From the NCBI GenBank assembly GCA_033762625.1, contig JANRLI010000005.1:170835-234834 (forward strand): a DNA stretch of 64,000 bases, written 5' to 3'. A program made the position numbers and the translations under genes. The notes under the pieces were generated by a model. It ran no database searches. It saw only the letters and a program-made list of their open reading frames with translations, and had not been told where the DNA came from. This DNA comes from Alphaproteobacteria bacterium. Lineage in GTDB: Bacteria; Pseudomonadota; Alphaproteobacteria; UBA9219; RGZA01. Below, one piece after another: positions 15,086-54,649 of the stretch (its first letter is position 1; each line of letters begins with the position of its first letter).

Positions 15086-15748
15086 ATGAATAAACAAGAT
15101 GCCGTTCAAACCGTTTTAATCCGTAACAGCTTTTACCGCGACGGGTACCGCTCGCTGCTTAAAGTGGCGCTCGTGCAGGGCGGTGTGATCATCGCGTTAA
15201 TTGCCGCGATTGTGTATCTGGTTTTATCCAGCGACGTGAAGCATGTGTTCTTTGCAACCAACGTCGATGGCCGCATCATGCCGATTGAACCGATTGCCGA
15301 ACCCTACTTCCAAGATGATCAGGTGATTACATGGGTGGCTAAAACGGCGCGTGAAGTTATGCAGATGGATTATCTGAATTACCGCACGAGTTTGGATAAA
15401 GCGAATAGCAAATTCACGCAGGCAGGGCGTATCGACTTCCACGCTGCGCTAAAAGATTCACGCCTTATCGAAGCGATTGAAAAGAACAAACTGGTTGTGC
15501 AGTTAAAGGTCGAAGGCGCGCCGCAAATTCTCAAAAAAGCGATGACGAAAGAAGGCGCCTATGTGTGGTTCCTTGCGATGCCCATCAGCATTGTCTATGA
15601 CGGCCAGGATCCGCCACAGCCATTCCGCGGTAAGCTCCAAGTTCGTGTTGACCGCATGGATTTCCTAGAAAATCCCGATGGTATTGCATTTGGACAGTGG
15701 GTAGTGGGCGAAGAAAATATTCTGAGCCGCGTACAAAAAAGTCCGTAA
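15086..15748 (+). CDS. icmL: T4BSS inner-membrane protein IcmL/DotI (TraM-like)
   Basis: The N-terminal hallmark IRNSFYRDGYRS is followed by a single TM helix and a periplasmic domain. It is the first gene of the dotI-dotH-dotG-dotF run. Confidence 0.85.
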   Translation: MNKQDAVQTVLIRNSFYRDGYRSLLKVALVQGGVIIALIAAIVYLVLSSDVKHVFFATNVDGRIMPIEPIAEPYFQDDQVITWVAKTAREVMQMDYLNYRTSLDKANSKFTQAGRIDFHAALKDSRLIEAIEKNKLVVQLKVEGAPQILKKAMTKEGAYVWFLAMPISIVYDGQDPPQPFRGKLQVRVDRMDFLENPDGIAFGQWVVGEENILSRVQKSP

Positions 15749-15764
15749 TCAGTTCTGAAAACGC

Positions 15765-16445
15765 ATGGCACAAAAACGCCCCACCACTGCGATTAAACCC
15801 GAACAGGTTTATAAGGTTGTCTTTCATCCTTCGGAACCTGCGCCCGTTGGTTCATCGGCGCAGTTCCGTTTTGCGCGTGGCCTAGTCACGATTTTATCCT
15901 ATGTGATTGCCTTGCTCGTCTTTTGCACGTTTATGGTCTATTTCATGTTTGCCGATACGTATTTTTATCATTTCACTGTGCTTGATCGCGAACGTATCCC
16001 CGAACGGCTCGCGACGATGAAGGCGCTCGATACCCCAAACCTGACACGTACCGGAATTACCAACATGGCGATGAATGTCGCAACCGAAGTATTGACCTTC
16101 GGGTTTAACAATGCCGATGAGCGGTTGCTCAAATCGCGCCGTTTATTTACCGAAGAAGCGTGGCTGCGTTTCGCAAAAGCATATTTGAAGGAAGGCCGTC
16201 TTGATAAAATCAAGCTCAACCAGCAGGTGCTGACCAACGTCGCGGTTGAAAATGCCGTGATTATTGAAGAGGGCCCGAATGCGATCGGCGAACAACAATG
16301 GGTTGTTCAGGTTCCAACCATTACCACCTATCAGGCAGGTAAGCGGATTGTGCCTGTACGCAGCGTTCTGCAAATCACCTTCATTAAGGCATCGACCCTT
16401 GAACACCCCGAAGGGGTTGCCATTGATGGTTGGCAACAAATCTAA
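15765..16445 (+). CDS. Second full-length DotI-like paralog (in the DotJ/IcmM position)
   Basis: One TM helix (LVTILSYVIALLVFCTFMVYFMF). Its periplasmic domain aligns by eye with the preceding DotI domain (TEVLTFGFNN... versus REVMQMDYLN...). Confidence 0.6.
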   Translation: MAQKRPTTAIKPEQVYKVVFHPSEPAPVGSSAQFRFARGLVTILSYVIALLVFCTFMVYFMFADTYFYHFTVLDRERIPERLATMKALDTPNLTRTGITNMAMNVATEVLTFGFNNADERLLKSRRLFTEEAWLRFAKAYLKEGRLDKIKLNQQVLTNVAVENAVIIEEGPNAIGEQQWVVQVPTITTYQAGKRIVPVRSVLQITFIKASTLEHPEGVAIDGWQQI

Positions 16446-16591
16446 CACAGCGATTCTCCAGAACCGCAGCTGATGCCGACGCAAATCGGCCATCTTTACT
16501 TCTCGTTAACATTCCACTCTCTACTCTCGTGATGGTTGATTCTTTCATGTCATAGGGGCAGGAAAAATAGAATCTGACGTGGGTTGGAGCA

Positions 16592-52588: not shown

Positions 52589-52708
52589 GTTTTTCCCAGA
52601 TTCAAGGTAAACGAATAACCGCGCTTGCTGGTTGGCAGCGCTCTATTTTCATGTCTTATTCGCTTTTTTTATTTCAATGTTAAGGCAAATAAAACATAAT
52701 CAAGCTGC

Positions 52709-53239
52709 ATGTTTATGTTTACCTTTTCAGTAATTACGATTTCCGTCGTCGGTCTGTTTTTCCAGATTGTCACGACGTTGACCTCGTATTTACTAAGTGT
52801 GCAAATGGGGTTAGGCCAACAACTGCTTGCATGGCATTCCATGGCATTTGCCTATGCCTGTACCGCAGCAGGCCTTGCCGAACCCGACGGCGGGACGGTT
52901 ACAATTAGCGAAGTTAGCCGCGCCAGCCAACTCACCGGAAGCTACCAATGGAACACTACATTTTTCACCGGAACGTATGCCGGGGCTACGCGCCGTATGA
53001 TTGTGACCTATGTCACGCCAACAGAAAAACCCCTGGGCTTTTCTTCCTATGATGTAGCGCGTCAGTTAACCCGGGTGACGATAAAACAGAATTTCTCGTT
53101 TGGCCGCAGCACGGCGGCCCAAACGGCTACATTCTCGACCTATGATGGTAATGTGCCATCCACTATTACGATTGGTGGATTACCGGCCGCAGTTGTAACA
53201 AATTCTGTTGTACTTGTAAGCGATGCAACCTGTAACTAG
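52709..53239 (+). CDS. Hypothetical membrane protein in the pilus cluster
   Basis: 176 aa with a hydrophobic N-terminus that lacks a G/F-xxxE prepilin site. It lies between pilS and pilV, and no family was recognised. Confidence 0.45.
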   Translation: MFMFTFSVITISVVGLFFQIVTTLTSYLLSVQMGLGQQLLAWHSMAFAYACTAAGLAEPDGGTVTISEVSRASQLTGSYQWNTTFFTGTYAGATRRMIVTYVTPTEKPLGFSSYDVARQLTRVTIKQNFSFGRSTAAQTATFSTYDGNVPSTITIGGLPAAVVTNSVVLVSDATCN

Positions 53240-53272
53240 AGTGTTTTAGATAAACCAGAAAAGGGTGTTGCC

Positions 53273-54649
53273 ATGAAATCATTCATTCAACCACACAGCG
53301 GAATGCGAAATGCCAATCGCGGTTTTACCCTGATTGAGCTGGTTATTGTTCTGGGTATTACCGGTTTGATTTTTTCAGGGCTTTGGGGATTGCTTACCAG
53401 CGGTAGTACTGCGCTACAGGCACAATCCGCCGCGCAGCAATACCGTCAGGTTATTGAAGCCATGCGCAAATATGTTGCAAGCGGTGTATATGCTGCGGAA
53501 GCCGATGGTAGCTTTGTTGCCGTACCGCCAACGATTGCGGATTTAAAAACCGCTAACCTTTTGCCAAGCAATTTCAATACAACCGATGCGTATGGCAATG
53601 CGATTACAACAGGCGTAAACACCATTTCTGCATCGCGCATGCAATGGCGCTTTGTTGTTTATTCTGGTACACGAACAGCTGCACCAGCTGTACTTATCCC
53701 CGATAAAGTAGGGGCGCAAATTTCATCGCTGATTGGCAGTGAAGGTGGCTTTGTGTATGGCAACGCAACCGATGGCTGCGCAGCCGCAGGCGCCGCAACC
53801 AGCACGGCGTGCGGTGCATTTAACTCCTTTGCCATGCCATTGTCAGATTTTAACATTCTTGCGGGCCGTGGCCGTATTGTTGCACAGGCCTATACCGTTG
53901 ATACCAATACCGGTACCGCGCCGTGGTTATACCGCAAGGCATCGACCAGTGCAGAACAGCGCACCATGCAAGAAAACATGCTGTTCAACGCTGGCCTTTC
54001 ACTATCGATGCAAACCAGCAATATCTTGATGGGCAATGGCAACATTGTTATGGGCGGCAGCGGTAATATATCAATGGGTAGCACCAACGGGGCAACAAGC
54101 GGGGCAACAGGTATTTTGTATATGGGCGGCGCAGGAATACGCAATCTAACCCAAATCAATCAAAGCCCTGCTTCGGGACAGCCCAACTTAGCTGTGTTTG
54201 CCAACAATCTTGCAATGACATCGAACACCAGTATCGACGTCGTCAGTGGCGCTACCTTCAACGTCAGCACCACGTCAGGAACGGCCGCAACCCTTTCGAT
54301 TGTTGGCCGTGGTACAGCCGATACGTTTGAAGCAGGTAAATTTATTTATACATCGGACGTGAACACCAAAGAAAATATCCGGCCGATTGAAAATGCGCTA
54401 AGCCGTGTATTGCAGCTTCGCGGTATGAACTATGATTGGAAGGGAACCCATGGTTCCGATATCGGGTTGATTGCGCAGGATGTACAAAAAGTATTCCCAG
54501 AGCTTGTAACCAAGATTTCGGATAAGCGATTGGGCGTTGATTATCCCAAGATGATTGCGCCAATCGTTGAAGCCATCCGCCAGCTCAAGATGGAAAACGA
54601 TGCCCTGCGCGCCAAGGTAGAAGAGCTGGAGAAGCAGAAAGCCAAGTAA
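53273..54649 (+). CDS. pilV: PilV-like minor (tip) prepilin fused to a tail-fibre-like domain and a C-terminal Peptidase_S74 intramolecular chaperone domain
   Basis: The prepilin site is NRG|FTLIELVIVLGITGLIFSG, followed by a Gly-rich repetitive middle (GNGNIVMGGSGNISMGS...). The C-terminus closely follows the S74 domain consensus: SDVNTKENIRPIENALSRVLQLRGMNYDW...IGLIAQDVQKVFPELV...VDYPKMIAPIVEAIRQL. Confidence 0.8.
   Translation: MKSFIQPHSGMRNANRGFTLIELVIVLGITGLIFSGLWGLLTSGSTALQAQSAAQQYRQVIEAMRKYVASGVYAAEADGSFVAVPPTIADLKTANLLPSNFNTTDAYGNAITTGVNTISASRMQWRFVVYSGTRTAAPAVLIPDKVGAQISSLIGSEGGFVYGNATDGCAAAGAATSTACGAFNSFAMPLSDFNILAGRGRIVAQAYTVDTNTGTAPWLYRKASTSAEQRTMQENMLFNAGLSLSMQTSNILMGNGNIVMGGSGNISMGSTNGATSGATGILYMGGAGIRNLTQINQSPASGQPNLAVFANNLAMTSNTSIDVVSGATFNVSTTSGTAATLSIVGRGTADTFEAGKFIYTSDVNTKENIRPIENALSRVLQLRGMNYDWKGTHGSDIGLIAQDVQKVFPELVTKISDKRLGVDYPKMIAPIVEAIRQLKMENDALRAKVEELEKQKAK

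Follow-up and report, generated by a model that had tools for sequence, protein, structure and literature searches.

The stretch of DNA analysed here, in the following called the window, comprises 64,000 nucleotides of contig JANRLI010000005.1 from the assembly GCA_033762625.1 of an alphaproteobacterium. At positions 15086-54649 it carries a chromosomally fixed type IVB secretion system (T4BSS) of the Dot/Icm type together with a type IVb pilus cluster of the type known from plasmid R64. It is assumed, with moderate confidence, that this apparatus serves the contact-dependent delivery of proteins, the target most probably being a bacterial prey or neighbour cell. The original prediction had described a chromosomal T4BSS with a thin pilus and had proposed a domesticated apparatus with a new role; the description proved sound, and the proposal is the best reading of the data. 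It had also spoken of about 40 co-directional genes. All genes indeed lie on the forward strand, while the count came to 36 open reading frames (ORFs) of at least 80 amino acids, with one or two further small ORFs being possible. Most of the 36 ORFs could be named by profile searches with Pfam and NCBIfam. The T4BSS genes come first and are followed by the pilus cluster, and the predicted order of blocks (traM-U, trbA/trbC, orphans, SLT plus DsbC-like, traH-K, pilL-V) was found again.

The genes of the secretion system were assigned as follows.

15086-15748 and 15765-16445, forward strand: two DotI/IcmL (TraM) paralogues (PF11393, E=6.6e-38 and 3.3e-24)
16592-18034, forward strand: DotH/IcmK (TraN) with a signal peptide and a Thr/Pro-rich linker (PF12293, E=1.5e-72; Legionella IcmK 6x62, 162 bits)
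18037-19416, forward strand: short DotG/IcmE (TraO-like) comprising the TrbI domain only (PF03743, E=6.4e-10)
19462-20796, forward strand: DotF/IcmG-like bitopic protein of 444 amino acids at the TraP position (profile of 22 orthologues against DotF 7muc_AF, E=2.4e-6)
20873-22003, forward strand: DotE/TraQ-like polytopic protein (NCBIfam TraQ, E=3.7e-18; Pfam DUF6750)
22146-22577 and 22617-23039, forward strand: two small DotP/TraR-like paralogues (jackhmmer)
23060-23791, forward strand: DotN/IcmJ, zinc-binding partner of the type IV coupling protein (NCBIfam IcmJ_DotN, E=6.2e-28; Legionella DotN 5x1h, E=4e-23)
23954-27049, forward strand: DotO/IcmB (TraU), VirB4-family ATPase of 1031 amino acids (closest homologues named IcmB in their sources)
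27096-28316, forward strand: DotM/IcmP (DotM_C, E=7.4e-46)
28325-28813, forward strand: conserved bitopic protein of 162 amino acids in the coupling-protein module (between dotM and dotL in 24 relatives)
28841-31306, forward strand: DotL/IcmO, the type IV coupling protein (TrwB_AAD_bind and TraG-D_C; Legionella DotL 6sz9, E=3e-131)
39514-42676, forward strand: DotD (TraH), DotC (TraI), DotB (TraJ) and IcmT (TraK) (PF16816, E=2.9e-26; PF16932 (T4SS_TraI), E=3.3e-76; T2SSE, E=1.1e-34; IcmT_TraK, E=2.7e-22)

Altogether, these genes comprise the set that defines a T4BSS (class MPF_I): the ATPase DotO, a core of DotC, DotD, DotH, a DotG with TrbI domain and DotF, the further components DotB, DotI, IcmT, DotE/TraQ and DotP/TraR, and the coupling protein DotL with DotM as well as DotN. 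As predicted, DotG is of the short TraO-like form: it has 459 amino acids, and its alignment is confined to residues 852-1046 of the 1048 residues of Legionella DotG. The DotF-like gene lies between dotG and dotE, the same place as in Legionella and IncI. The TraQ-like protein and the two TraR-like proteins were united by jackhmmer into one superfamily, whose hidden Markov model (HMM) matches both TraR and TraQ of IncI. In the most distant relatives (loci of relatives carry L numbers), the TraQ-like gene is a single ORF of 535-978 amino acids with one to three TraR/DotP-like modules followed by a TraQ-like module (L071 6522-8513, L073 6887-8593, L080 3433-5040 and L057 5677-8613, the last with an N-terminal extension of about 500 amino acids).

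Compared to IncI, the secretion proteins showed about twofold higher bit scores against the Legionella Dot/Icm chains in the PDB. This holds for DotL (442 versus 210 bits), DotB (6geb, 356 versus 186), DotH (162 versus 91), DotC (148 versus 95), DotM (92 versus 37), DotD (65 versus 16.5) and DotN, for which 85 bits stand against a marginal tblastn match only. DotI gave 52 bits with Legionella DotI 3wz4 and 30 bits with R64 TraM 3wz3, different constructs being compared in this case; it is the exception among the shared components. Due to the higher Legionella scores, the secretion part is to be regarded as Dot/Icm-type, and the predicted label "IncI/R64-like" suits the pilus cluster only. The likeness to Legionella further includes the gene order icmL-K-E-G-C-D-J-B, the dotD-C-B block, matches of DotL, B, H, C, M, D, N, I, G and F to its chains, and a chromosomal position without a relaxase (for the locus, within the window). 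Absences reported here and below apply to the window and partly to the 7-10 kb around the genes of relatives. In contrast to Legionella, DotA, IcmX, DotK, IcmS/W/Q/R/V/F and DotU were not detected, DotG is short, the locus includes a fused type IVb pilus cluster, and the host is an alphaproteobacterium with bacteria-preying relatives. IcmT follows dotB, unlike in Legionella but as in IncI.

For the comparison with IncI1 (R64-type), the full Tra/Trb/Pil set of the annotated plasmid pSAN1-08-1092 was searched against the window by phmmer and tblastn. Pairwise matches were obtained for TraH, I, J, M, N, U, TrbA, TrbC, PilN, P, Q, R and PilT, while TraO and PilS were weak and TraT gave a marginal tblastn match at the DotN gene. 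TraQ and TraK/IcmT were assigned by profile only and not by a pairwise IncI match. The likeness to IncI1 thus comprises the same block order, homologues of TraH, I, J, K, M, N, O, Q, R, T, U, TrbA and TrbC, a protein at the TraP position, a counterpart of TrbB with DsbC-like thioredoxin fold (by domain and motif), and pairwise similarity for PilN, PilQ, PilR, PilP and PilS. However, the identity amounts to 21-32% only (27% across 980 amino acids for DotO and TraU), and there was no hit in the window for NikA, NikB, TraY, TraW, TraX, TraV, TraL, TraS, TraE/F/G, ExcA, Rci, PilU, PilM, PilI/K and PilV; PilJ and a shufflon are likewise missing. Contrary to IncI1, the locus is neither plasmid- nor island-borne. 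The nearest DotO homologue on a plasmid was found with 43% identity on the Rhizobium leguminosarum megaplasmid pRlX5 (L083). This plasmid of 1.3 Mb is typed non-mobilizable; its DotO (20001-22976) and a DotL with 44% identity (41377-42960) lie 20 kb apart on opposite strands, with no other window homologue between them.

The pilus cluster starts directly behind the dotD-C-B-icmT block.

42743-51195, forward strand: PilL, PilN secretin, PilO, PilP, PilQ ATPase and PilR platform (TcpQ for PilL, secretin, PAP_PilO, PilP, T2SSE for PilQ, T2SSF for PilR; Pfam/NCBIfam)
51327-51956 and 52001-52588, forward strand: two tandem PilS-type major pilins (Bundlin, E=1.8e-5; PF08805 PilS on the L086 orthologue)
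52709-53239, forward strand: protein of 176 amino acids with an N-terminal hydrophobic segment (no family hit; a gene for 182-196 amino acids at the same place in L086 and L087)
53273-54649, forward strand: minor pilin of 458 amino acids at the PilV position (N_methyl, E=8.9e-7; Peptidase_S74, E=1.2e-17)

With PilN, PilQ, PilR, PilO, PilP, PilL and a PilS pilin, the components of an R64-type thin pilus are present. Against IncI, PilN reached 165 bits, PilQ 148, PilR 124 and PilP 19, while PilS was weak; the identity was 25-30% over most of PilN, PilQ, PilR and PilS. PilL and PilO were assigned by Pfam profile only and not pairwise. The two pilS genes form a direct repeat of 300 nucleotides with 81% identity, and their leader lengths are about 34 and about 20 residues. 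In L086, one PF08805 PilS gene is followed by a gene for 182 amino acids without family assignment. The protein of 176 amino acids in the window may be a minor pilus protein. Low-complexity linkers rich in Thr/Ser/Pro or Gln/Pro/Met were observed in DotH, PilL, PilN (a poly-Ser run) and PilP (16592-17300, 43400-43800, 44500-44600 and 47200-47900). IncI PilU, the dedicated prepilin peptidase, gave no hit in the window; the nearest and only A24 peptidase by the pilus genes is short and belongs to the neighbouring Tad locus (55985-56509).

The protein at the PilV position begins with a prepilin N-terminus; behind its Gly-rich middle, a Peptidase_S74/ICA domain and then a coiled coil form the C-terminal part. 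Its sequence shows no relationship to that of IncI PilV, and neither Rci nor a set of inverted repeats (shufflon) was found in the window, the sole notable repeat being the tandem pilS duplication. Among 33 homologues the middle is hypervariable, while S361, D362 and K366 of the Ser361-Asp-x3-Lys366 cleavage motif are invariant. An AlphaFold2 model showed the N-terminal pilin fold with good confidence, and the modelled ICA domain matched the MyRF ICA 7dc3 (template modelling score 0.72, probability 1.0) and the phage endosialidase-type 3gw6. The protein resembles two different families: it shares the modelled N-terminal pilin fold with the type IVb tip minor pilins CofB/TcpB, and the domain together with the Ser-x4-Lys motif with the ICA of phage tail fibres/endosialidases (3gw6) and of MyRF (7dc3). 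Unlike CofB/TcpB it carries an ICA domain, whose trimerisation and self-cleavage are predicted. In phage fibres, the ICA domain folds the trimer and then cuts itself off, and type IVb minor pilins are known to form trimeric tips. Fusions of pilin and ICA domain over the full length occurred in 36 protein clusters, of which the seven with a name are alphaproteobacterial or proteobacterial metagenome-assembled genomes (MAGs); we know of no previous description of such a fusion. The hypervariable middle and the conserved cleavage motif fit a role in target recognition. In L026, a PilV-chaperone gene (15613-17004, 28% identical) follows directly after dotM and the gene for 162 amino acids, where the window has dotL.

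A second question concerns the age of the locus. A scan of one genome per species yielded 285 stretches encoding DotO relatives, of which the best 80 were inspected. DotO relatives hence occur in at least 80 species-level genomes, with 57-100% identity in the best aligned segment among these best 80 of 285. The same best 80 stem from uncultured bacteria whose labels read Alphaproteobacteria, Micavibrio, Bdellovibrionales, Rhodospirillales or similar; the label Bdellovibrionales can be explained by the fact that NCBI files Micavibrio under this order. Closed chromosomes of 1.9-2.1 Mb are among them. The GC content of about 0.49-0.52 is flat across the borders of the locus, and the relative synonymous codon usage of secretion and pilus genes correlates with that of the housekeeping flank (r=0.86-0.93). 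The comparison of GC and codon usage of 15-55 kb with the flanks, which had been proposed as a check, accordingly revealed no foreign signature.

The proposed search for insertion borders by synteny led to the same result, as both junctions are conserved in distant relatives. On the left, the block from the gcrA-like gene and dotI to dotN/dotO recurs in most relatives' loci reaching that far, and the acnA/gcrA-like/dotI junction is kept in L016, where DotO is only 64% identical. On the right, the order IcmT, PilL to PilV, small reverse gene, Flp, CpaA and RcpC is exact in L086 and L087 (PilV 42% identical), and the IcmT-PilL junction is kept in L041, L064, L086 and L087. In the closed 2.06-Mb chromosome CP064970.1 (L089, 1098156-1121140) the system is split: dotO lies beside gyrB, RNase H and HU, and dotM-x-dotL directly beside rpmH-rnpA-yidD-yidC. 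Proteins of 828 and 438 amino acids without assigned family are encoded just upstream of this dotO. In view of the many DotO relatives, the flank-like composition and the conserved junctions, the locus is neither an isolated oddity nor an island.

All 19 of the genes tested against four relatives showed purifying selection, with ratios of nonsynonymous to synonymous substitution rates (dN/dS) of 0.01-0.20 at dS 0.3-2. For DotO the ratio was 0.01-0.05 across comparisons. Compared to L001 (10001-13096), only one of the 1031 residues of DotO differs at a dS of 0.76 (dN/dS 0.01), which is tighter than for any neighbouring gene. A 774-kb contig of the ENA with a near-identical DotO belongs to a different species from that of the window (dS about 0.6-1.0). 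Judged from these sequence comparisons, the locus is an old, vertically inherited chromosomal feature and not a recent island. Flank-like composition, deep synteny and low dN/dS also make a recently acquired integrative and conjugative element (ICE) very unlikely, and given the housekeeping synteny in relatives, an ICE border just outside the window is unlikely.

Judged from the content of the window, the locus is not a self-transmissible element. No relaxosome or origin of transfer (oriT), integrase or attachment site was found in the window, in agreement with the predicted lack of relaxase, NikA, integrase, transposase, tRNA and Rci/shufflon. Pfam and NCBIfam detected no integrase, transposase or relaxase domain among the window ORFs; for the relaxase, this covers the 15 kb on the left side of the locus and the 9 kb on its right side. 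Scans of the window returned no tRNA genes and no Rfam matches. The seven annotated loci of relatives contain no relaxase or integrase Pfam family either.

The predicted lack of a large polytopic DotA/TraY in the window was borne out by phmmer, tblastn and NCBIfam. With IncI TraY, neither phmmer nor tblastn gave a significant match in the window or in 83 loci, nor in the 10 kb next to the DotO of 80 relatives, and NCBIfam searches of the unassigned ORFs (all of at least 84 amino acids) returned no DotA/TraY, relaxase or integrase family, the list of models in this library not having been inspected. Two candidates were rejected. A recurrent protein of 640-665 amino acids, which is encoded close to DotO in Micavibrio genomes and has a topology like that of DotA, was identified as YidC. 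A hidden DotA was also sought in the TraQ-like protein and in its fused forms of 535-978 amino acids, but the match of the family HMM to TraY was marginal and non-significant, and the TraQ-family profile does not hit DotA 9ngy in the PDB, whereas TraY does. On the plasmids with the nearest DotO (Rhizobium pRlX5, 43%; Acetobacter pAC1084_1, 32%) no DotA is annotated. Family profiles and PDB searches of the orphans detected none of IcmX, DotK, IcmS, IcmW, IcmQ, IcmR, IcmV, IcmF and DotU in the window; for IcmS, IcmW, IcmQ, IcmR, IcmF and DotU this had been foreseen. Small adaptors of the IcmS/IcmW type may be too diverged to be detected or may be encoded elsewhere in the genome, and the same location is conceivable for DotA and IcmX. 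In Legionella, dotA-icmVWX sits apart from the other dot/icm genes. The missing DotA/TraY, IcmX and IcmS/W imply either that key parts are located elsewhere in the genome or that the channel is unlike that of known T4BSS.

Based on these components, the following course of events can be proposed. PilL/N/O/P/Q/R would assemble the PilS pilins into a pilus bearing the PilV-type subunit, whose chaperone domain would fold a trimeric fibre and cleave itself off at the Ser-Lys site. This fibre would bind the target surface, and the contact would draw the envelopes together. A core of DotC, DotD, DotH, DotG and DotF would span the envelope, its insertion being aided by the lytic transglycosylase and the DsbC-like isomerase and its completion being brought about by the membrane proteins DotI, DotE/DotP family and IcmT. 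The DotL-DotM-DotN coupling complex would select cytoplasmic substrates, probably proteins, and DotO and DotB would power their transfer. Gene content, integrity, age and conservation of the locus are established by the sequence data, while substrate, target cell and the coupling of the pilus to secretion are inferred.

Delivery of proteins into bacteria is supported by the near-complete set of components, which are nearer to Legionella Dot/Icm than to IncI, and by the cultured predator Micavibrio aeruginosavorus ARL-13, which carries and transcribes icmO. Further support comes from the lack of mobility genes in the window, the flank-like composition, the conserved junctions including the IcmT-PilL linkage, the purifying selection and the spread over at least 80 species-level genomes. 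In a TXSScan survey, the Micavibrionales systems were classed as protein-secreting type I type IV secretion systems (T4SS; PMC9418006). The named cultured members of this wider group prey on bacteria (ARL-13 genome paper). A precedent exists in the kib T4BSS of Pseudomonas putida IsoF, which kills bacteria on contact (PMC9519443). Its genes lie on an integrase-bearing genomic island of 67 kb with low GC content, occur in 11 Pseudomonas strains only, and include icmW and an identified effector-immunity pair (PMC9519443). Killing requires dotD and, grouped with it, a hypothetical gene and the gene of a lytic transglycosylase (TrbN) (PMC9519443). By description, not by sequence, the two systems are alike in being chromosomal T4BSS with many hypothetical genes, and the kib group resembles the arrangement of the gene for 291 amino acids, the SLT gene and, further on, dotD in the window. 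In contrast to kib, no effector-immunity pair was found in the window.

Several observations weigh against this reading. No IcmS/IcmW-type adaptor, DotA/TraY or IcmX is present in the window, although TraY accompanies TraU on almost every plasmid with TraU (3930 versus 3783 records). No effector, immunity gene or translocation signal was found, and no toxin or immunity domain was recognised in the window. Predation is established for cultured Micavibrio and not for the window's own lineage, a point that also leaves room for a eukaryotic target. Legionella Dot/Icm can mobilise plasmid DNA (RSF1010). In the expression table of ARL-13, where a keyword search retrieved icmO but not the DotO block, icmO was weakly expressed and alike in both phases (index 4.3 for attack, 3.5 for attachment). 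Finally, some Micavibrionales MAGs are described as photoheterotrophs (PMC9933672). Protein delivery to bacterial cells nevertheless remains the reading held with moderate confidence. In a more specific form, put forward as a tentative proposal, a Dot/Icm system free of DotA/IcmX and IcmS/IcmW would be permanently coupled to the type IVb pilus with its self-cleaving, trimeric tip adhesin of tail-fibre type, and both would serve epibiotic predators of the Micavibrio type as a conserved apparatus for recognising prey and injecting into it.

The same machine might instead inject effectors into eukaryotic cells such as protists or algae, as in Legionella, Coxiella and 'Comchoanobacter'. The closeness of the components to Legionella Dot/Icm would agree with this, as would the TXSScan survey, which mentions the systems of seven marine Micavibrionales in a single sentence and takes type I T4SS without a relaxase as a marker of host association (PMC9418006). 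However, the named cultured Micavibrio prey on bacteria, IcmS, IcmW, IcmQ/R, IcmF/DotU, DotA and IcmX were not found in the window, and the R64-type pilus is known to bind bacterial surfaces. A eukaryotic target is consequently considered rather unlikely.

Still less probable is an apparatus for DNA conjugation or mobilisation that acts in trans on a relaxase and oriT located elsewhere, for example on mobilisable islands of Micavibrio. The ARL-13 genome indeed contains islands with mobA/L-type genes and integrases (ARL-13 genome paper), and in the locus the coupling-protein module is complete and the thin pilus is of the mating type. Since Legionella Dot/Icm mobilises plasmid DNA, the missing nearby relaxase leaves DNA transfer possible. 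Against this stand the lack of a relaxase in the window flanks and in the seven annotated loci of relatives, the lack of entry-exclusion, NikA or primase genes in the window, and the fixation of the locus in small 2-Mb chromosomes of many species at a DotO dN/dS of 0.01, which is unusual for the helper of a mobile element.

A machine without any translocated substrate, acting in adhesion or biofilm formation or in the uptake or release of DNA via pilus and channel, appears very unlikely. Two pilus systems lie side by side, and some T4SS act in DNA uptake or release (PMC4793230), but strong constraint acts on a DotL/DotM/DotN substrate receptor and on two cytoplasmic ATPases. To our knowledge, DNA-release T4SS need a relaxase, and the known DNA-uptake systems are of type IVA and lack a coupling protein. 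An integrated IncI-like conjugative element in decay, stripped of its relaxosome and integration genes, would account for the lack of DotA/TraY, relaxase, integrase and shufflon in the window, but is all but ruled out by intact ORFs throughout, dN/dS of 0.01-0.20 in four pairwise comparisons, a composition fully converged on that of the host, synteny kept over deep divergence, and proteins nearer to Dot/Icm than to IncI.

Between the two parts of the secretion system and in the flanks, further features were determined.

14423-14890, forward strand: GcrA-N-terminal-like protein of 155 amino acids (Pfam GcrA, E=4.5e-4, below cut-off; NCBIfam GcrA weak)
31573-36292, forward strand: five orphans of 215, 516, 116, 84 and 554 amino acids, which start with a signal or membrane-anchor segment (without match in Pfam, NCBIfam and PDB)
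36308-36344, both strands: strong bidirectional intrinsic-terminator hairpin (16-bp stem, 9 GC pairs, T-run on each strand)
36532-37407, forward strand: conserved cytoplasmic protein of 291 amino acids (adjoins the SLT gene in L039 and L044; recurs in L018)
37404-37919, forward strand: TrbN/PilT-like lytic transglycosylase (SLT, E=0.0043; IncI PilT, E=3.4e-8)
37948-39003, forward strand: DsbC/TrbB-like thiol-disulfide isomerase with CPHC motif (Thioredoxin_2, E=2.6e-7)
39029-39316, forward strand: protein of 95 amino acids with two transmembrane segments
54680-54714, no strand assigned: terminator-like hairpin closing the pilus operon (17-nt arms, 94% complementary, 1 nt apart; 31 nt past the pilV stop codon)
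54740-55156, reverse strand: Cys-rich protein of 138 amino acids with a signal peptide (a small reverse-strand gene 3' of PilV in L086 and L087)
55685-63443, forward strand: Flp/Tad locus with Flp pilin (55685-55864), A24 prepilin peptidase (55985-56509), RcpC, secretin, CpaD, CpaE, CpaF and TadB (Pfam; Flp motif visible in the ORF)

The five orphans are confined to the closest relatives: the protein of 554 amino acids had seven hits among 1.84 billion representatives, and that of 516 amino acids had ten homologues. They evolve fast and are yet constrained (dN/dS 0.05-0.14), and may be peripheral periplasmic or surface parts. For the orphan of 516 amino acids, an AlphaFold2 model with a mean pLDDT (predicted local distance difference test) of 57 showed a helical core, for which Foldseek gave no match at E<1. 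Sequence searches of the PDB with the proteins of 554, 516, 376 and 291 amino acids yielded no match. In L009, L016, L018 and L090, a family-4 glycosyltransferase and a Wzy_C (O-antigen ligase-like) membrane protein are encoded between dotL and the secreted orphans.

The GcrA-like protein has a C-terminal CxxC...CxxC (Cys4) motif, and its gene lies immediately 5' of dotI in 11 relatives with dN/dS of 0.01-0.09; it may be a regulator of the locus that ties expression of the machine to the cell cycle. The hairpin at 36308-36344 is predicted to divide the locus into two transcription units. A scan for sigma-70 promoters yielded fewer sites than in shuffled sequence, and no promoters were placed. 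The gene of the Cys-rich protein (in relatives, L085 8647-9051) always adjoins that of the PilV-chaperone protein, even where the latter stands alone: a homologue (E=4e-21) was found beside a solitary PilV-ICA gene among housekeeping genes in CP064970.1. The Cys-rich protein may act together with the pilus tip as a secreted partner.

Pfam confirmed the predicted flanks, with core metabolism on the left and Tad on the right. The left flank comprises a MIP channel (aquaporin), an amidase, cytochrome bc1, formate-tetrahydrofolate ligase (FTHFS) and aconitase (acnA), and the Flp/Tad locus on the right is complete. Flp pili are required for predation by Bdellovibrio (PMC5430801), and the Flp gene is highly expressed in M. 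aeruginosavorus ARL-13.

The T4BSS family and its presence in this clade are already known. The statement that Dot/Icm-type systems are found mainly in gammaproteobacteria and on IncI plasmids is outdated in view of the Micavibrionales survey (PMC9418006) and the ARL-13 genome paper of 2011, in which icmO was annotated and not discussed. A search of the available literature library yielded no paper linking Micavibrio with Dot/Icm, T4BSS or IcmB. New are the composition without DotA/IcmX/IcmSW, the conserved linkage to a pilus, the order-wide conservation, and a tail-fibre-type chaperone, predicted to cleave itself, at the pilus tip.

A Dot/Icm-like injector with a targeting pilus represents a concrete and testable candidate for how Micavibrio relatives attack their prey from outside. 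If true, it would provide the missing molecular basis of 'leeching' predation and would be the first T4BSS that forms an ancestral, order-wide core trait outside the Legionellales. If the machine mobilises DNA instead, this would matter for the gene flow between predator and prey. The design of the pilus tip would be borrowed from phage tail fibres, and its variable middle could set the prey range. Altogether, the locus would widen the biology of T4BSS by an ancient chromosomal lineage in the Alphaproteobacteria and by a machine that may function without DotA/IcmX.

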